From Kiritimatiellia bacterium (GTDB taxonomy: Bacteria; Verrucomicrobiota; Kiritimatiellia; RFP12; DVOR01), in the NCBI GenBank assembly GCA_017558005.1, contig JAFYWN010000009.1, positions 13,072 through 77,071 of the forward strand: a stretch of 64,000 bases of DNA, in the 5' to 3' direction. Made by a program: the position numbers and the translations under genes. This document shows, piece after piece, positions 1,621 to 8,702 of the stretch. Each line of letters begins with the position of its first letter. Within the stretch, counting starts at the first letter, position 1. Under the pieces are notes generated by a model. The model worked only from the letters and a program-made list of their open reading frames with translations. It made no database searches and was not told the origin of the DNA.

Positions 1621-3231
1621 TTAGGAGAGCAGGGAGCGGAATTTGAGGTTGAATTTCGCGAGGTATTTTGAGAGTCGGTCAGTGTGATTGGCCGACTTTT
1701 TTGCGCGCATGGAGACGGCATAGAGTTTACGGGCGGCATCTGCCATGGAGTCTGAGGTGCGGCAGACGCGAATGACGTGGGCGAGCTGCACGAGGTCAAA
1801 GGCGTCGTAGTGTTCGGCATAGTCTGCGCCGAGGTGGGTGGCGAGGAGGTTTTGCGTCTCGGCATCGTCGGATGCTTGGTCTGCGGGGGTGGGGGTGACG
1901 CGCGCAATTTCTTCTTCTACGAGGTCTAAGGTGATACGACCGCCATCGGCGAGGGTTCCCATGCGAGTGACCATGGCATTGAGATCACGGAAGTTGCCCT
2001 CCCATTGGGTGGTGGGATGAAGGGCGTAGTCTAAAAAGCGTTCGCGCGCCTGTTTGTTAAAGGAGATGAATTTTCCAGTGCGGGAGGCGTAACGATTGAG
2101 TTCGTACTCAAGGTTGGGGGCGATGTCTTCGCGGCGTGCGGCCAACCCCGGGAGGCAGAAGCTCCAGAGATTGATACGCGCCAAGAGGTCGCGACGGAAT
2201 TTGTTATTACGCACTTCGGCTTCAAGGTCACGATTGGTGCCGCAGATGAGTTGGAAATCACTCGTCTCATCGGCGGTGGCCCCGAGGGGACGGAAGGTTT
2301 TTTCTTCGATTGCCTTAAGGAGAAGGGTCTGCGCTTCTAAGGGGAGTTCGCCGATTTCATCCAAGAAGATAATGCCGCCATCGGCCTCTTTTAGGAATCC
2401 AGTGTGGTCGGTGCCCGCGCCAGAGAAGGCTCCCTTTTTATGACCAAAGAGGGCAGATTTCGCCAAGTCGCCGCCAAGGGTGGCGCAGTTGACAGCAACG
2501 AAGCGGCCCTTGACTTTACCCGTTTGCTTCTTGAGGAGATAGATTTGCTTGGCGAGTTGGGTCTTGCCGGCACCCGTGGGACCGCTAAGGAGAATGGGGT
2601 CAATCGAACGCACAGCGACGCGTTCAATCGTTTCAATCAACCTATTGAAGGCGGGGCTTTTGGTATCAATGCCCTGCTTTAGGAAGGTGAGGTCGTCTTG
2701 ACGTTCGGATTCAAAGCGTGTGGCGAGTTTGTCATAACGCGACAGGTCGAGGTCAATAATCGTGTGGGTGCCTTTGGGGTCTTTGGAGTGGCGGACGTGC
2801 CCCTCTTTTGGGGTGGTCTGAATGAGTTTGGCAGGGAAGTGCCTGGATTCTGCTAAGAGGAAGAGGCAGATCTGCTCCACGTGTGAACCCGTGGTCATAT
2901 GGATGTAATAATCAGTCTTTTCCTCGTGGAAACAGGGGCTTTTGGAGTAGTCATAGAATTTTTCATAGACCTCTTCAAAGTCCCATGGGTTCTGAAGCTC
3001 AATATTGTCAAAGATGACTTCCGTTTCGGGGGAGACGGAGGCGATGTCTTCTTTAATGCGGTTGGCAAGCGGTAGAAATTCACGATTGAAGATGAGGTGC
3101 AACTCATCAATGGGCAGGGTGTCTTGTTGGACAAGGCCAATGGTGGGGCGCCAAGTATCCCAACGGGTGGGGCCGTAGCCGCCATGTGCGTCTTTTTGTG
3201 TGCCAAGCACAGAGATAACGGTAGTCTTCAT
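1621..3231 (-). CDS. rtcR: RtcR, sigma-54-dependent activator with N-terminal CARF-like sensor domain
   Basis: 536 aa. N-terminus (VLGTQKD...RWDTWRPT...SVSPETEV...NPWDFEEVY...HMTTGSHVEQICLFLL) matches the RtcR-specific domain of E. coli RtcR as I recall it. AAA+ core has GPTGAGKT, GAFSGA loop and FLDEIGEL. Divergent from a sigma-54 promoter and rtcA/rtcB. Confidence 0.9.
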   Translation of the reverse strand: MKTTVISVLGTQKDAHGGYGPTRWDTWRPTIGLVQQDTLPIDELHLIFNREFLPLANRIKEDIASVSPETEVIFDNIELQNPWDFEEVYEKFYDYSKSPCFHEEKTDYYIHMTTGSHVEQICLFLLAESRHFPAKLIQTTPKEGHVRHSKDPKGTHTIIDLDLSRYDKLATRFESERQDDLTFLKQGIDTKSPAFNRLIETIERVAVRSIDPILLSGPTGAGKTQLAKQIYLLKKQTGKVKGRFVAVNCATLGGDLAKSALFGHKKGAFSGAGTDHTGFLKEADGGIIFLDEIGELPLEAQTLLLKAIEEKTFRPLGATADETSDFQLICGTNRDLEAEVRNNKFRRDLLARINLWSFCLPGLAARREDIAPNLEYELNRYASRTGKFISFNKQARERFLDYALHPTTQWEGNFRDLNAMVTRMGTLADGGRITLDLVEEEIARVTPTPADQASDDAETQNLLATHLGADYAEHYDAFDLVQLAHVIRVCRTSDSMADAARKLYAVSMRAKKSANHTDRLSKYLAKFNLKFRSLLS

Positions 3232-3433: not shown

Positions 3434-3449
3434 TGGCACGGCAGGTGCA
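3434..3449 (+). promoter_or_regulatory. sigma-54 (-24/-12) promoter of the Rtc operon
   Basis: TGGCACGGCAGGTGCA versus consensus TGGCACG-N4-TTGCW. GG (3435-36) and GC (3447-48) are exactly 12 nt apart, with one mismatch. About 60 nt upstream of the ATG at 3511 and opposite rtcR. Confidence 0.65.
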
Positions 3450-3510: not shown

Positions 3511-3972
3511 ATGAAAAAGAACGTATCGATTGCGCGAGCATTGAAGGAAAAGAATCGTATCGCAGGTCGGTTGCGACAGGCCTTGGAGGAAGTGGGAAAG
3601 GAAAACTCTCAAGATGTGCGTATTCCGCGTGGGGTTGATGTCTTGGAGATGTACGAACAAGCCAAGCAATTACGGGCACGATTGTTGGCTACGAAGCGTG
3701 CGATTGCGGAAGCCAACCATGCGATCGTCGGGAAGATTCTGGAGTTGGATGAGGTTAAGGCACAGATTGCCTTCTTGAATGGTCTGAATGTGAAGGAGGG
3801 GCGGTTTGTGACGACACGTTATTCGGAGACGATTGAAACGGAGGTGACGGCCGTAATTCAGAAGGCGCAAGTCTTGAAAGAAGTGGAGGTACTTCAAAAA
3901 CAAGCGGATGCGCTTCAAGATGAGTTGGATAACTTTAATGCAACAACGTTTGTGGAGATTGAAGTGGACTGA
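3511..3972 (+). CDS. hypothetical 153-aa all-helical/coiled-coil protein, first gene of the Rtc operon
   Basis: RBS aaagga 8 nt upstream of the ATG. Heptad-like charged sequence; the ends (SIARALKEKNRIAGRL... and ...LQDELDNFNATTFVEIEV) resemble, from memory only, the ~150-aa DIP1984/septicolysin-like family. Confidence 0.7.
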   Translation: MKKNVSIARALKEKNRIAGRLRQALEEVGKENSQDVRIPRGVDVLEMYEQAKQLRARLLATKRAIAEANHAIVGKILELDEVKAQIAFLNGLNVKEGRFVTTRYSETIETEVTAVIQKAQVLKEVEVLQKQADALQDELDNFNATTFVEIEVD

Positions 3973-3984
3973 GTAGGATTTAAA

Positions 3985-4146
3985 AAAGTCACACCGCTAC
4001 ATCTTCTGCAGGCTTATACCTGCATGACAATTAACGGGATTGAAACGCCCTCGCATGAGGTTTAAACCTTAAAGGGTAAGTGCTTAATCCGTAAATTGAA
4101 AAACTTAAATCGTAAACCTTATTTTTAGATGGAGTGATGTGACTTT
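3985..4146 (+). ncRNA. candidate structured RNA (long terminal stem plus nested internal helices)
   Basis: 3985-4004 pairs with 4127-4146: 18 of 20 positions (17 Watson-Crick, 1 G-U, 2 mismatches). Internal perfect hairpin tgcagg-cttata-cctgca (4007-4024). Nested helices 4034-4041/4086-4092, 4048-4051/4073-4076 and 4058-4061/4066-4069. No credible ORF in the 291-nt gap. Confidence 0.35.
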
Positions 4147-4205
4147 CTCTCAAGGGAATTAGGGTGAAAACGTTATGAACCTTGGGAGTTTTCTTTTTGA
4201 TTTTT
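4147..4205 (+). terminator. terminator-like or attenuator hairpin inside the operon
   Basis: ctctcaagg (4147-4155) pairs with ccttgggag (4180-4188): 9 bp with one G-U and a 24-nt loop, followed by ttttctttttgattttt. Confidence 0.45.
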
Positions 4206-4263
4206 GGATGAACAGCATGAGTGATGAGTAATTTCACTAAAAACTTGAACAAGGAGGTGACAG

Positions 4264-5424
4264 ATGAACATTATTAAGACTGGTGAATATTATCGTATTT
4301 TTGGCAATGGCGTTCAGGTTGGGAAGGTTCTATCCCCAGCGATGTATGAAGTCGTCTTTGTAAAGAATGATGGGTTTTATTTGCGTGCAACACCGAATCC
4401 AGTGGTACAAATTGGGAAGGTGTATGGTCGCATGACCGAACGGATTGAGAAGGTGCTAAAGAGTTATGCGCTTTCACAACGTAATTTAGGTGTGATTCTT
4501 TCTGGTGCGAAGGGCATTGGGAAGTCGCTCTTTGCAAAGTTAATTTCGTTACGGGCGATTGACGAGGGGCTACCTGTTATTATGGTAAACCAATACTATG
4601 AGGGTCTTCCACAATTCCTGGCGTCAATTGAACAACGGTGCATGGTGTTGTTTGATGAGTTTGATAAGAACTTCTTTGACCCTTCACGTGAAACAGAAGA
4701 TCATACTGCTGTACAAGATTCGTTTTTAACCTTGTTCGATGGAGTGTATGCGTCAAATAAGTTGTTTGTGATTACGGCGAATTCTTTGGGTAGACTCTCG
4801 GAATTCTTAATTAATCGTCCAGGACGTTTCCGTTATCACTTACGCTTTACTTATCCCGATGAGGCAGAGATTCGCCAATTTTTAAAGGATCAATTAGGCG
4901 AGGCTGCAAATCCAGAAGAGGTTGATAATGTGGTTAAGTTTTCCACGATGGTCCCATTATCGTATGACTGTCTTACTGCGATTGCTTCAGAATTGGTTTT
5001 AGGAGAGAGTTTTGATGCGTGCCTTGAAGTGCTCAATATCTTGAATGTGACGGGTTATCACTACTACAGTGCACGGGTGCGCTTTGCAAGTGGTGAAGAA
5101 TTGCAACAGCGTTGGGTTGGGCAGCATAACTTCTTTGATAAGTCGCGCGATGCGATGTATCTGAATATTGATCTTGAAGGCATTTCAGGCACTCAGGAGG
5201 TGGAACTTGGCACACTATTAATGAAATGTGGTGATGTTCGAAAGTGTGGCACGTTTTTGCAGGATGGTAGTATTGTTATTCCATACGAAAACGGTCGTAA
5301 CTTTCGTTGGGTACAAAAGAGCTCAAAGGGTCGCCAATTGGATGAGCGCTACAAGGCACCAATAGAATTGATCTTAGAGTCTGGGGCTGGGCACCGTCAA
5401 GTTTCATTTAAGGATTTGTTTTAA
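4264..5424 (+). CDS. classical-clade AAA+ ATPase with unique N- and C-terminal domains
   Basis: RBS aggagg. Walker A GAKGIGKS (nt 4504-4527), Walker B MVLFDEFD, sensor-1 VITAN, second region of homology RPGRFRYHLRFTYPD. The ~75-aa N-terminal and ~130-aa C-terminal regions are unrecognised. Confidence 0.85.
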   Translation: MNIIKTGEYYRIFGNGVQVGKVLSPAMYEVVFVKNDGFYLRATPNPVVQIGKVYGRMTERIEKVLKSYALSQRNLGVILSGAKGIGKSLFAKLISLRAIDEGLPVIMVNQYYEGLPQFLASIEQRCMVLFDEFDKNFFDPSRETEDHTAVQDSFLTLFDGVYASNKLFVITANSLGRLSEFLINRPGRFRYHLRFTYPDEAEIRQFLKDQLGEAANPEEVDNVVKFSTMVPLSYDCLTAIASELVLGESFDACLEVLNILNVTGYHYYSARVRFASGEELQQRWVGQHNFFDKSRDAMYLNIDLEGISGTQEVELGTLLMKCGDVRKCGTFLQDGSIVIPYENGRNFRWVQKSSKGRQLDERYKAPIELILESGAGHRQVSFKDLF

Positions 5425-5453: not shown

Positions 5454-6365
5454 ATGAACGAACAAACACGTAAATTTGATATCTATCAAGGGCATGGTGA
5501 TCACAATGAATGCGTGAATGGCTATGAGAATGAGGCGGAGTTTTTTGGCGAGTGGTTGCCTCGTGCGTGCCAAGAGGGGACTGTTCTGGCTGCTACAAAT
5601 GAAAAGGTGCAATGGTATCGTGAAGCGGATGAAGACGTTAAAGACGGATTGAAAACGCTTGAAGAAGGGCATGTAGTATTGCTTGGAGATGGCTCCGGTC
5701 CTGTACGTTTGGCAGTTTTGTTGGTAGGGGATAAGGAAGAGAAAAAGTTTGAACTCGCCTCTTTCTATCCCGAATGCGATGGTGTCGCGGTTCGTATCCG
5801 TTTGACGGAGATTCATGAATGGGCTGCAGGGTTAGAGGCGACGTTAGAAGGTGAACTGGTTGACTGTGAAGATCGGCAAGTGGCTTTTTTTGACACGCGT
5901 TATGTCTTCAACAAAGATCAGTATAAGGTCGGTGAAATTTATACGTTTAATTTGGCGGCGCTTGCCAATACTGCGGAAGTTTTGCCAGAGGAGAGTCGTG
6001 AGATTCGCATTGAAGGTGAACGTGCGGTGGAACACTATCGGATGAGAGGTGAAGAAATTTCCTATGATGAATCGGGTAATGTGAAGCCGATAATCTTTCG
6101 ATTGGATGAGCTGGTGGCCTTGTTTCAATTGGATGCAGCTTATCCAGATGATGCGGAGTTTCAGTCTCCAGTAATTGATGATGTTGAAACATTTGAGAAA
6201 TTCAATACATCGTTTTACCAATTCAAGATTGGTATTGCGCGAGGGTGTGAAGAATCGGTTGAGATTCCCTTGATTGCAAAACAGGCACTGTTTAACGAAG
6301 TGCCAACCGTTGGTGAGCCTGTTCGTGGACATCTGTGGTTACATGGGCATTTGGTTTTAGGCTAA
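5454..6365 (+). CDS. hypothetical acidic protein (303 aa)
   Basis: RBS agaggt, 29 nt after the AAA+ gene and 23 nt before rtcA. By my count ~61 Asp+Glu versus ~29 Lys+Arg; no recognised motif. Confidence 0.7.
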   Translation: MNEQTRKFDIYQGHGDHNECVNGYENEAEFFGEWLPRACQEGTVLAATNEKVQWYREADEDVKDGLKTLEEGHVVLLGDGSGPVRLAVLLVGDKEEKKFELASFYPECDGVAVRIRLTEIHEWAAGLEATLEGELVDCEDRQVAFFDTRYVFNKDQYKVGEIYTFNLAALANTAEVLPEESREIRIEGERAVEHYRMRGEEISYDESGNVKPIIFRLDELVALFQLDAAYPDDAEFQSPVIDDVETFEKFNTSFYQFKIGIARGCEESVEIPLIAKQALFNEVPTVGEPVRGHLWLHGHLVLG

Positions 6366-6388: not shown

Positions 6389-7486
6389 ATGAGTGATGAA
6401 ATGATTGTGATTGATGGTGCCATGGGTGAAGGTGGTGGACAGATGCTGCGCACGGCGTTAACGATGAGTGCGGTAACTGGAAAGCCCTTTGAGATGGTGA
6501 ATATTCGTGCGAAGCGCGAGGTGCCAGGATTGCGGCGCCAACACTTGACGGGATTGCGCGCTGCTGCAGAGATCTGCGGAGCGGAGGTGACGGGGGATGA
6601 GGTTAAGTCGATGCGCGTGACCTTCCGTCCGGGCGCAATTAAGGCGGGCGACTACCGTTTTAGTATCGGGACGGCAGGGAGTGTGACCTTGGTGGCGCAG
6701 ACCGTGGTGCCGATTCTCTTGTGCGCAGATGCTCCTTCGAAGGTGGTCATCACGGGTGGAACACATGTATCAATGGCTCCTACGTGGGAATTCTTTGAGA
6801 AGACCTACGTGCCACAGTTGCAGGCAATGGGAGCAGAGGTCAAGGCAAAGCTGCGTCACTATGGCTTCTATCCTGCTGGCGGCGGTGAGGTGGTTTTGGA
6901 AATCCAACCTTGGAAGGTGGCAAAGCCTTTGGAACTGCTTACGCGTGGGCCGAAGGTGGAAACTTGGATTACGGCAAAGGTGGCGCATCTCTCGTTAGGG
7001 ATTGCTTCGACAGAGGCGAAGATTGTGTATGATCAATTGCCTGGGCGTGAGATGCGCATGCAAGTGGAGGAAGTCGGTTCGCATGGAACGGGCAACTACT
7101 GTTTGTTCGTGAAAAAGTGTCAAAACATCACGGCGGTCTTCTCGGAGATTGGAACGTATGGGAAGTCGCGTAAGGCGGTGGCGAATAGCGTGGCGCAGCA
7201 AGCGAAGGCCTACTTACGGGCAAGTTTCGTGGCGGATACGCACTTGAGTAATCAATTGTTGCTGCCCATCGTGCTCGCAGCCGATCGCGTGCCCGCAGAG
7301 AGTCTCTATTGGGGGAAGTTCTCAATGCCCCGAAAACATTCGCAACATTTTGATACGAATTGGGAGATCTTAAAATTGTTCCGCGAAGACTGCGCAATGG
7401 TAGAGGTGCCATCGAAACGATGCAAGTATACGACGAAGGTTTATATTGGTAAGAAAGGATTTGAAAATGAAGTGGCAGAAGCTTGA
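6389..7486 (+). CDS. rtcA: RNA 3'-terminal phosphate cyclase
   Basis: GEGGGQMLRTAL, PGLRRQHLT, GDYRFSIGTAGSVTL, HYGFYPAGGGEV, and C-terminal SQHFDTN carrying the candidate adenylylated His. Confidence 0.92.
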   Translation: MSDEMIVIDGAMGEGGGQMLRTALTMSAVTGKPFEMVNIRAKREVPGLRRQHLTGLRAAAEICGAEVTGDEVKSMRVTFRPGAIKAGDYRFSIGTAGSVTLVAQTVVPILLCADAPSKVVITGGTHVSMAPTWEFFEKTYVPQLQAMGAEVKAKLRHYGFYPAGGGEVVLEIQPWKVAKPLELLTRGPKVETWITAKVAHLSLGIASTEAKIVYDQLPGREMRMQVEEVGSHGTGNYCLFVKKCQNITAVFSEIGTYGKSRKAVANSVAQQAKAYLRASFVADTHLSNQLLLPIVLAADRVPAESLYWGKFSMPRKHSQHFDTNWEILKLFREDCAMVEVPSKRCKYTTKVYIGKKGFENEVAEA

Positions 7487-8702
7487 GGAAGGATTTCGCA
7501 TCCCGGTGAAGAGTTGGTGCGAAAATTGCGAAGAGGGGGCCGTCCAGCAGGCTGCGAATTTGGCAAAGCATCCGGTGCTCTTTAGTCATGTGGCATTGAT
7601 GCCGGACGCTCACCAAGGGTATGGAATGCCGATCGGTGGTGTGGTTGCCGCGGAACAGGCTGTGATTCCGGCGGCGGTCGGGGTGGATATCGGGTGCGGT
7701 ATGATTGCCGTTGAGACGGATATCCCGGCAGAACGTTTCGCAGAGATGTCTTTTCGGCGTGCCTTCCAGGAACGGTTGAAGGAGCGCATTCCTGTTGGGG
7801 ATGGGGTTTCTCATCAGACGACCCAAGATTGGGAAGGCTTTGAGGCGTATACGGCCAATAATTCCATGCGTGCAGATCTCTGGCCATTGAAGTTGGACCG
7901 TAAGAACTTAGGAACGCTCGGGGGTGGCAACCACTTCATTGAGTTGCAGAAGACCACGGCCTTAGATGGACAGGGAGAACCTGAAGGTGGAAGCAAGATT
8001 TGGTTGATGATTCACTCGGGATCACGCAACTTAGGAAAGCGGATTGAGGAACACTATCACCGCATTGCCAAGCGACTGTGCACGCGCTTCCATGTGCCGT
8101 TGGCAGATCCTGATTTGGCATTCTTGCCGATTGAGGAGGCAGAGGGACACCGTTACTTTACGGATATGCTCTTTGCGCTGCGTTACGCGAAGGAAAATCG
8201 TCGTCGCATGATGGAGGTGATGAAGGAAACGTTGGCCGAATTTGTGCCAGAGGTGAATTTCATCCAAACGATTGATATCCATCATAACTATGCAGCCTTC
8301 GAAGAACATTTCGGGAAGAAGGTTTGCGTGCACCGCAAGGGGGCTACCTCGGCGAAGCTCGATGAGATTGGTATCATTCCTGGATCTATGGGAGCCGCCT
8401 CCTATATTGTGCGAGGATTAGGAAATCCGCAGTCCTTCATGTCTTGCTCCCATGGTGCAGGACGAAAGATGAGTCGAATCTCGGCCTCCCGAAACCTCAC
8501 GGTAGAGGAGTGCGATAAGGCCATGGAAGGGATCGTGTGCGAACGCTGGCATGCGTATAAGGGTTATGGAAAGGCGAAGGGATGCCTCGACCTTTCGGAA
8601 GCGCCACAGGCCTATAAGGATATTGAAGAGGTCATTTCTGCTGAGACCGACTTGGTAGAACCTCTCGTACGCCTGGTGCCCTTGGCCTCTCTCAAGGGGT
8701 AA
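7467..8702 (+). CDS. rtcB: RNA-splicing ligase RtcB
   Basis: MPDAHQGYGMPIGG, GVDIGCGM, GGGNHFIE, HSGSRNLG, HHNY, HRKGA, SCSHGAGR. I prefer the ATG at 7467 (RBS aaagga) over the TTG at 7446; it overlaps the rtcA end by 20 nt. Confidence 0.93.
   Translation: MKWQKLEEGFRIPVKSWCENCEEGAVQQAANLAKHPVLFSHVALMPDAHQGYGMPIGGVVAAEQAVIPAAVGVDIGCGMIAVETDIPAERFAEMSFRRAFQERLKERIPVGDGVSHQTTQDWEGFEAYTANNSMRADLWPLKLDRKNLGTLGGGNHFIELQKTTALDGQGEPEGGSKIWLMIHSGSRNLGKRIEEHYHRIAKRLCTRFHVPLADPDLAFLPIEEAEGHRYFTDMLFALRYAKENRRRMMEVMKETLAEFVPEVNFIQTIDIHHNYAAFEEHFGKKVCVHRKGATSAKLDEIGIIPGSMGAASYIVRGLGNPQSFMSCSHGAGRKMSRISASRNLTVEECDKAMEGIVCERWHAYKGYGKAKGCLDLSEAPQAYKDIEEVISAETDLVEPLVRLVPLASLKG

Follow-up and report, generated by a model that had tools for sequence, protein, structure and literature searches.

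A conserved structured RNA that accompanies a DIP1984-like gene at the start of an Rtc operon in a Kiritimatiellia bacterium

What occupies the 291 nucleotides (nt) between the first and second genes of an Rtc RNA-repair operon? The question is raised by a 64,000-nt stretch of DNA from a Kiritimatiellia bacterium (contig JAFYWN010000009.1; the whole of this stretch is called the window), in which an intergenic gap at 3973-4263 separates the gene for a 153-amino acid (aa) protein from that for an AAA+ ATPase. A first-pass annotation, made from the letters of the sequence, had placed in the gap a structured RNA on the operon strand, with a long stem formed by its two ends. Fold, covariance model (CM) and covariation bear this out: the RNA is a real and strongly conserved structured family. 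Its parts in the window are:

3978-4205, plus strand: the whole RNA element, comprising structured domain, terminator hairpin and U tract (minimum free energy (MFE) -68.4 kcal/mol, z -5.4; CM match)
3985-4004, plus strand: 5' strand of the closing stem P1, AAAGUCACACCGCUACAUCU, the base of which reaches the AAA at 3985-3987
4127-4146, plus strand: 3' strand of P1, AGAUGGAGUGAUGUGACUUU
4007-4024, plus strand: hairpin P2, a perfect 6 base pairs (bp) (4007-4012/4019-4024, UGCAGG/CCUGCA), varying in sequence and number among homologues
4028-4098, plus strand: core domain, an irregular stem capped by P3 and P4, which holds the conserved motif GAUnUUGA
4028-4032/4094-4098 (Ha0), 4034-4041/4086-4092 (Ha) and 4042-4047/4081-4085 (Hb/Hc), plus strand: helices of the irregular stem of the core
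4049-4052/4057-4060 (P3) and 4066-4070/4073-4077 (P4), plus strand: hairpins capping the core
4061-4126, plus strand: nine YAA motifs (Y being a pyrimidine) at a period of about 7 nt, with A's at 4064, 4071, 4078, 4086, 4093, 4100, 4107, 4114 and 4121, ending in CGUAAACCUUAU
4147-4205, plus strand: terminator-type hairpin (9-bp stem 4147-4155/4180-4188 with an inner mini-hairpin) and a 17-nt U-rich tract

The MFE, obtained with RNAfold for 3978-4205, compares with -45.5 +/- 4.2 kcal/mol in dinucleotide shuffles, of which 0 of 200 were as good; the minus strand of the same interval folds less well (-56.7 kcal/mol). The domain measures 175 nt, or 228 nt with the terminator. Both the closing stem and the 6-bp hairpin that had been picked out by hand lie exactly where they had been placed, and RNAfold recovers them. 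The strands of P1 pair at 18 of 20 positions, one of them G.U, with mismatches at C3994/A4137 and A3999/G4132. The three nested helices proposed for the interior are likewise present in the sequence and in the RNAfold structure. These are Ha, in which ACGGGAUU (4034-4041) pairs with AAUCCGU (4086-4092), and two inner complementarities, CCCU 4048-4051/AGGG 4073-4076 and AGGU 4058-4061/ACCU 4066-4069. The inner two are not conserved: across 28 homologues they are paired in 43% of cells, which is the level of shuffled columns, and the family keeps instead P3, P4 and the short helices closing a three-way junction. In L081, which is 99% identical (loci cited as L001, L002 etc. are the homologous loci gathered for this comparison), C3994 is replaced by U, mending the C/A mismatch in P1, and U3998 by C, disrupting a U-A pair. 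The sequence GGAUUGAAAC (4036-4046) is like the 3' end of some clustered regularly interspaced short palindromic repeats (CRISPR), with weak Rfam matches to CRISPR-DR8/DR10 (E 3.5-4.4); the likeness was judged to be chance, the motif being the conserved GAUnUUGA core of the RNA family.

Homologues of the gap were gathered along two routes. The first, via the AAA+ protein, gave 80 loci, and blastn of the gap against them matched only the near-identical L001 ("Candidatus Spyradenecus sp.", Lentisphaerota; 98-99% identical to the window across the locus). This route was unproductive because the AAA+ family occurs mostly in Firmicutes and phage-type contexts without Rtc genes. In the syntenic locus L003, where the proteins are 65-84% identical, the gap is visibly homologous though its sequence differs. 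The second route, via the 153-aa protein, gave 161 proteins, mostly from metagenome-assembled genomes of Kiritimatiellae, and 61 metagenome loci; these have the same RNA architecture within a few nt downstream of the homologue of the 153-aa gene.

A seed alignment of 11 sequences was prepared with MAFFT, the structure being taken from the MFE fold of one member and limited to the helices recurring in others. In the seed 86% of positions are paired, as against 34-44% when the partners are slid by 1-3 columns, and 20 pairs have two-sided changes. The covariance model R1, built from this seed, found full-length matches in 34 loci and the window (E 1e-50 to 8e-07), the window scoring 102 bits (E 5e-26) over 3978-4152. 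The strand signal is exemplified by L090, with 189 bits on the plus and 13 bits on the minus strand. When 28 sequences were aligned to the CM, 83% of cells were paired versus 29-42% after sliding, and two-sided changes were found at 48 of 54 pairs, counts which favour the model, the alignment having been fitted to it. Of 500 column shuffles none matched the observed pairing values, a control that overstates significance since the sequences are phylogenetically related. By helix, the paired fraction in the 28 sequences is 91-92% for P1, 89% each for P2 and the junction-closing Hb/Hc, 85% for P4, 70% for Ha and 50% for Ha0. Two-sided changes affect 20 of 21 pairs in P1 and 7 of 8 in P2, and Ha shows AU/GC and CG/AU exchanges. 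P1 was also checked without an alignment, by folding as a duplex the 40 nt that follow the stop codon and the 40 nt that follow the A-rich segment; a P1 of 18-27 bp was obtained in 16 of 17 clade representatives (z -2 to -5.6), the sequences of the strands being unrelated between clades. The covariation to which the first-pass annotation had looked in related gaps is thus there, both in a P1 kept with unrelated sequences and in the two-sided changes counted above.

Might the gap hold a small protein-coding gene? The longest stop-free stretch on its plus strand is 28 codons, and no conserved open reading frame (ORF) accounts for the spacing, so that the earlier reading of the gap as having no credible ORF is upheld. 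A six-frame comparison gave between-locus translated similarity on both strands and in several frames, and is uninformative alone because nucleotide conservation gives similarity in all frames. A small gene was rejected on two grounds, the lack of an in-frame conserved ORF and the compensatory nature of the stem substitutions. Deletion derivatives also exist: in L138 (3996-4240), L139, L140 and L141 codon ~36 of the 153-aa gene is fused directly to the part comprising P3, the heptads and the 3' strand of P1, with the terminator behind it; presumably these copies have decayed.

To which gene does the RNA belong? The gene-RNA pair is the first unit of the Rtc RNA-repair operon in the window, with a sigma-54-type promoter beside a divergent rtcR, in the following order:

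1621-3231, minus strand: rtcR, divergently transcribed activator (Pfam RtcR 3.6e-71 and Sigma54_activat 7.7e-50), consisting of an RtcR CARF-type domain and a sigma-54 interaction AAA+ domain
3434-3449, plus strand: sigma-54-type promoter-like element TGGCACGGCAGGTGCA (pattern scan, 1 mismatch), 62 nt upstream of the 153-aa gene; taken alone, a consensus match only
3511-3972, plus strand: gene for the 153-aa protein ('cc153'), predicted to be divergent DIP1984/DUF6847-like, the RNA's constant upstream neighbour
4264-5424, plus strand: AAA+ ATPase of a phage-associated family (Pfam AAA 4.4e-09; phrog_2376 4.3e-91), downstream of the RNA and unlinked to it
5454-6365, plus strand: 303-aa clade-restricted protein (84 homologues only), predicted to form all-beta tandem barrels (AlphaFold2 predicted local distance difference test (pLDDT) 90)
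6389-7486, plus strand: rtcA (Pfam RTC 1e-70)
7446-8702, plus strand: rtcB (Pfam RtcB 3.7e-108)

In most loci of the Planctomycetes-Verrucomicrobia-Chlamydiae (PVC) group, to which the gut bacterium of the window belongs, a comparable GG-N10-GC sigma-54-type element precedes the homologue of the 153-aa gene by 57-165 nt. In PVC loci that gene stands after the divergent rtcR and before rtcA/rtcB, with or without the AAA+ and 303-aa genes. R1 (E<1e-6) finds the RNA downstream of it in 34 loci, and in the distant evaluable loci the RNA is recognisable by eye or by folding in all but one. The AAA gene of L002 lies directly behind the promoter, and neither the 153-aa gene nor the RNA is present there; the RNA occurs without the AAA gene in L088, L093 and L096-L105. 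Since L002 is without both and the RNA is independent of the genes that follow, it travels with the upstream gene and not with AAA or rtcB, and a tie to the AAA+ gene or to rtcB has to be given up.

The same linkage holds outside Rtc operons. P1 begins 1-9 nt after the stop codon in every lineage. Seven distant bacterial homologues were found in other contexts (an aldehyde dehydrogenase, type III restriction-modification, small phage-like genes with tRNAs, and miscellaneous genes). All seven have a gene-free stretch of 220-510 nt downstream, in which a P1 of 20-28 bp begins 1-8 nt behind the stop codon and encloses 110-170 nt; in six of them the tail is significantly 7-nt-periodic. Gene and RNA are both present in two huge phages with genomes of 462 and 595 kb. 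When IMG/VR was scanned with a profile of the distant homologues, 51 loci were obtained, 34 with unique downstream sequence, and every one of the 34 has a strong P1 duplex, the median being -29.2 kcal/mol compared with -17.1 in 102 control windows from the same loci; periodicity at p<=0.01 was found in 53% of the unique loci and 0% of the controls. The RNA is always paired with a DIP1984-like gene, and their physical and evolutionary coupling is established across these contexts. The PVC-type core motif, used as a DNA pattern to scan IMG/VR, had 16 matches, which were set aside as chance because the covariance model confirmed none. Neither blastn searches of INPHARED phages and PLSDB plasmids with the RNA nor a tblastn search of plasmids with a DUF6847-type homologue gave a match.

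Strict linkage to one gene family is also what would be expected of a purely cis-acting element in the 3' untranslated region (UTR) of the 153-aa mRNA, such as an exonuclease stabiliser, an RNase III stem or an autoregulatory site, without function once separated from its message. The fixed position of P1 behind the stop codon and the terminator at the end of most copies suit such an element, and a duplex of 20-28 bp is a plausible RNase III substrate. A stabiliser or processing stem, however, needs no three-way junction, no invariant nucleotides and no indel-free array of nine units kept from PVC bacteria to phages, and we regard this explanation as quite unlikely.

That array is the most regular part of the RNA. 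The first-pass annotation had described 4093-4126 as an A/U-rich single-stranded stretch; the A-rich stretch is indeed there, but it is not featureless, being part of the phased YAA array. Eight of the nine periodic A's (4064 to 4114) are invariant columns in a 26-sequence MAFFT alignment, spaced 7,7,8,7,7,7,7. The Fourier power of A occurrence in the window peaks at 7.25 nt, with 0 of 1000 shuffles as high; across the family the peaks fall at 7.25-7.5 nt, with p<=0.02 against 1000 shuffles in almost every member that was correctly anchored. Between P3 and the 3' strand of P1 the family has no indels save for one 1-nt insertion. Some of the more distant members have outright tandem heptamers, such as L121 (UAAGGCG UAAAACG CAAGGAC UCAACCU UCACGCC UCAAUCC...) and L120 (GUUCAAG GUUCAAG...). 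The first six YAA units overlap the 3' strands of P4, Hb, Ha and Ha0. A likeness of GUAA-type units to the 3' region of 16S rRNA (UCGUAACAAGGUAACC) was dropped, since it is not colinear and is absent from the clades with CUCAA-type units.

How does the RNA end, and what of the genes beyond? A terminator or attenuator had been predicted here, and both the 9-bp stem and the U tract are present: CUCUCAAGG (4147-4155) pairs with CCUUGGGAG (4180-4188), followed by UUUUCUUUUUGAUUUUU (4189-4205), the whole folding at -17.3 kcal/mol. A simple terminator scanner missed the hairpin because its loop limit is 8 nt. Behind P1, at least 16 of the 19 other representatives have a stable hairpin (-28 to -50 kcal/mol) that leads into a clear U tract; the U tract follows P1 directly in L133 and some phage copies. 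Among 36 non-Rtc copies, seven have a U tract abutting P1, 15 a separate hairpin and U tract within 95 nt, and ~14 no terminator by the criteria used. Nothing promoter-like was seen between the terminator and the next gene in the window and L096-L099, and therefore expression of the downstream genes needs read-through. The sequence thus supports a hairpin of the intrinsic-terminator type which would also have to act as an intra-operon attenuator.

Such an arrangement might allow antitermination in the manner of HutP or of lambda N/nut, with the 153-aa protein as a regulator that binds the nascent array, overrides the terminator and gates the genes from AAA through rtcB. The layout is that of hut, namely a regulator gene, triplets at a 7-nt period, a terminator and then structural genes (PMC2425495), and the window and L096-L099, having no promoter after the terminator, require read-through. 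Where P1 abuts the U tract, as in L133 and the seven non-Rtc copies, binding beside its 3' strand could block formation of the terminator. Against this, L164 and L172 have the next gene on the opposite strand and hence nothing downstream to gate, and L103 and L104 have a second sigma-54-type element of their own after the terminator, which argues against gating of downstream genes as the general function of the family. The non-Rtc copies without a terminator argue in the same direction. In the window no alternative antiterminator pairing between P1 and the terminator was found by eye, HutP was not among the Foldseek matches of the protein, and known antiterminator targets are far simpler than a P1 of 20-28 bp together with conserved internal domains. 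We consider antitermination unlikely.

The 153-aa protein itself has no significant Pfam or PDB sequence match and no recognisable RNA-binding domain. Its AlphaFold2 model (pLDDT 92) has the order strand, three helices, beta-hairpin, helix, strand, and the top Foldseek match is 3KDQ, a Corynebacterium diphtheriae protein of unknown function (probability 1.0, template modelling score 0.51, over the full length). The runners-up are prefoldin subunits, which are weak (E>0.1, probability <=0.38); oligomerisation of the protein is suggested only. Matches in BFVD are uncharacterised phage proteins. A profile search of 1.84 billion representatives gave 1549 clusters, 1025 of them at E<=1e-10. Intermediate sequences match the NCBIfam family DIP1984_fam over the full length (E 1e-5 to 3e-11), below the family cut-off, and the gene of L162 carries a precomputed PF20935/DUF6847 match. 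Curated thresholds were not reached by the protein (15.7 bits for NF038048, whose cut-off is 70; for PF20935 E=0.031, reached by one of 21 members). From its predicted fold, its length and the linkage through intermediates, it would be a divergent DIP1984/DUF6847-like protein. Its charge is unevenly distributed, the N-terminal half being basic (+7) and the C-terminal half acidic (-8). In the literature found on DIP1984/DUF6847 no function is attached beyond the label "septicolysin", and no associated RNA is described.

The reading that we favour, with moderate confidence, is that a protein-RNA module has been recruited to the RtcR/sigma-54 Rtc operon, that RNA and protein work as a pair, and that the terminator attenuates read-through. 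The RNA would be transcribed as the immediate 3' extension of the ~150-aa DIP1984/DUF6847-like gene, and would consist of five parts: a P1 of 20-28 bp, one or two variable hairpins, a three-way-junction core, the array of nine YAA motifs and the terminator hairpin. The protein, probably oligomeric, would bind the periodic array as a platform for several protomers, while P1 and the terminator hairpin would shield the ends of the RNA. Because of the terminator the pair would be made in excess over the repair enzymes, AAA, the 303-aa protein, RtcA and RtcB being reached by read-through only. Together they would form a ribonucleoprotein, which may have a role in handling damaged RNA.

Several points weigh against this view. 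Co-transcription and protein binding are deduced from position and co-occurrence. The covariation counts are biased towards the model and come from 28 related sequences, and the phage copies were called by ad hoc criteria of energy and periodicity, not by a calibrated model. The protein is near-neutral overall (pI, the isoelectric point, ~6), and the lack of a recognisable RNA-binding domain has been mentioned. The array lies partly in the 3' strands of Ha, Hb and P4, and thus cannot be both fully paired and fully protein-bound. Lastly, the homologue in L123 (2923-3369; 45% identity) is without a recognisable RNA, an ORF being directly next to it.

Turning to the neighbouring genes, homologues of the AAA+ protein in Firmicutes have no Rtc genes nearby, and several (L042, L045, L051) adjoin dense tRNA arrays, with 15-18 tRNAs in ~10 kb, as is usual in the tRNA clusters of phages. 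The 303-aa protein, an identical copy of which carries the label "Kiritimatiellae bacterium" at NCBI, shows weak Foldseek similarity to barrels like the oligonucleotide-binding (OB) fold (ModG/Mop, Rpb8, Teb1), and may be a binder of single-stranded nucleic acid. In L158 (7154-8721, equivalent to L003:2335-3914) a gene for a HipA_C-domain kinase and a preceding 111-aa gene lie between rtcR and the sigma-54 promoter with its tRNA-like leader; the two look like a HipBA-type toxin-antitoxin pair.

Many PVC loci also possess a cloverleaf of 71-73 nt, absent from the window, which is called as a tRNA by ARAGORN and the Rfam tRNA model, and some have a second tRNA-like element directly after the terminator of the RNA. 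Their positions are:

L085:494-564, L082:392-462, L003:4095-4166, L103:2081-2153, L090:2164-2235 and L160:4255-4325: leader cloverleaf
L109:2191-2261 and 5075-5145: leader cloverleaf in two copies, the second with a promoter and in front of the AAA gene
L003:4899-4973, L088:4703-4783, L093:2595-2675 and L160:5062-5142: second tRNA-like element, after the terminator

The leader cloverleaf includes a C1-G72 pair and a D-loop of 4 nt, and CCA is not encoded. Its 5' end is ~13 nt past the -12 element of the sigma-54-type promoter, its 3' end ~30 nt short of the 153-aa gene, and on one scaffold it bears the anticodons CCA, UCA (opal-reading), CAA or UCG. These elements look like RtcR-dependent tRNA-like leaders. 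The elements after the terminator are of two types, one tRNA-Asn(GUU)-like with a defective acceptor stem, the other an 81-nt scaffold of tRNA-Asn type with acceptor, D and T arms intact and an aberrant anticodon arm with a 5-nt loop. In the phage-like, non-Rtc context of L167 (4908-4982; also L168 and L169) a high-scoring tRNA-Ile(GAU) lies 19 nt before the DIP1984-like gene, and the order of tRNA, gene and RNA parallels that of tRNA(-like) element, gene and RNA in the PVC loci.

Could the RNA be a decoy or sentinel for RNA-cleaving toxins, its nine 7-nt units mimicking anticodon loops so as to absorb nucleases or to feed RtcR with fragments bearing 2',3'-cyclic phosphates? The unit has the right length, with YAA at a fixed position; CUCAAG occurs as in tRNA-Leu CAA, and nGUAAAA as in tRNA-Tyr GUA. 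The operon is RtcR-controlled, and RtcR has been reported to respond to cleaved tRNAs (PMC10159003). In many PVC loci the module has tRNA-like leaders and tRNA(-like) genes at its flanks, in L167 a bona fide tRNA-Ile, and it is found in phages and beside restriction-modification genes. The idea is, however, one of resemblance throughout. The units are not on stems, U33 is not conserved in the GUAA-type units, no nuclease partner was identified, and a tRNA lies within 1.5 kb in only five of 51 IMG/VR loci, directly upstream in none. We consider a decoy highly improbable. A broader proposal, which we hold to be doubtful and very unlikely, is that the DIP1984-like gene and its RNA of ~170-230 nt are a widespread phage and bacterial module whose anticodon-loop mimics decoy or sense tRNA-targeting nucleases, and which in PVC bacteria has been wired, with sigma-54-driven tRNA-like leaders, into RtcR/RtcAB.

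If the RNA is real in vivo, the module that we favour would offer a first functional handle on the DIP1984/DUF6847 ("septicolysin") family, with a dedicated RNA partner from PVC bacteria to huge phages. It would show that a non-coding RNA module with no relation to Ro and Y RNA can be part of Rtc operons, together, in related loci, with tRNA-like leaders transcribed from the RtcR-dependent promoter, and the targets of Rtc repair and the trigger of RtcR would become testable in a new lineage. A large RNA class with a strictly phased heptanucleotide array would be added, for which the alignments and covariance model allow search and curation.

Does the RNA belong to a class already described? 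No match at gathering thresholds was found with Rfam 15 across the window, and at E<=10 the interval 3900-4300 gave only noise (CRISPR-DR8/DR10 and SIB, E>3); the Y RNA-like and tRNA-like models, to which the first-pass annotation had pointed, gave none even at that level. Sixteen homologous loci at gathering thresholds and four at E<=0.1 likewise gave no match for the RNA, the only matches being the separate tRNA(-like) genes and one riboswitch elsewhere. The latter is a SAM-I/IV match at L121:801-923 (41.4 bits, gathering threshold 41.1), ~3 kb upstream of the module and unrelated to the present finding. ARAGORN detected no tRNA or transfer-messenger RNA (tmRNA) in 3800-4400, and no D- or T-arm; a tRNA or tmRNA identity was rejected, there being neither cloverleaf nor tmRNA architecture. 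In type III antitoxin RNAs (ToxI-like) the tandem repeats are ~34-45 nt long and precede the gene for an endoribonuclease toxin. This identity was rejected too, since the unit here is 7 nt, the RNA is downstream of its partner gene and PADLOC gave weak, non-specific matches. The literature searched contained no relevant account of an RNA motif associated with Rtc or of an RNA associated with DIP1984, and to judge by these comparisons the RNA appears to be of an undescribed class matching no known family.

In the rsr-yrlBA-rtcBA operon of Salmonella the Y RNAs YrlA and YrlB stand beside the Ro60/Rsr gene under the control of RtcR and sigma-54. By analogy the RNA might be a Y-RNA-like scaffold of the Rtc system, with a terminal stem that binds a Ro-like partner and an internal domain that tethers enzymes of RNA repair or decay. 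The likenesses are a place inside an RtcR/sigma-54 rtc operon beside a protein gene, a long stem made from the 5' and 3' ends, and tRNA mimicry in the same operons of related loci. The differences are more numerous. As the first-pass annotation had remarked, Ro is missing, no Ro/TROVE gene being detected by Pfam among the operon genes from rtcR to rtcB. There is no Rfam Y match in the window or the 20 homologous loci scanned, and no module with D- or T-arm. The partner is DIP1984-like, and the RNA family lies mainly outside Rtc operons, including in phages. Y RNAs, which have a tRNA-like module, measure 80-130 nt (PMC4201824); at 175-230 nt the present RNA is about twice that size. The analogy is thus valid only for position and terminal stem, every other testable defining feature having failed; membership of the Y RNAs, which the first-pass annotation had entertained, is to be abandoned, and a Y-like scaffold seems to us extremely improbable.

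Other known systems offer partial parallels to the favoured protein-RNA module. With HutP and the hut operon it has in common a small product of the first gene, an RNA directly downstream with triplets at a 7-nt period, a terminator and then enzymes; TRAP and the trp leader RNA may be named beside it as a comparable system. HutP binds XAG triplets with 4-nt spacers, and in-line cleavages occur at U498, U505 and U512 (PMC2425495). The motif in the window differs in being nine copies of YAA, not XAG in two sets of three. It is joined to a closing stem of 20-28 bp and a conserved junction; the fold of the 153-aa protein is unrelated by Foldseek, and some copies have no co-directional downstream gene. 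Compared with DIP1984/DUF6847 proteins (3KDQ) the 153-aa protein falls below the NCBIfam and Pfam cut-offs, but it has the same length and the same predicted fold, and is linked through intermediates.

CpxQ and SroC are small RNAs derived from 3' UTRs which share the terminator of the mRNA. The RNA of the window similarly starts right after a stop codon and ends at an intrinsic terminator, with no promoter of its own detectable; unlike them it is far larger and more structured, is conserved with its upstream gene across phyla and phages, and shows no evidence of base-pairing targets. CsrB and RsmZ, finally, bind protein at multiple sites bearing GGA motifs. In the present RNA the motifs are strictly phased (7 nt) within a segment of fixed length and are not presented in hairpin loops, but the likeness is that many copies of a short motif are held in one RNA, which suggests several bound protomers.

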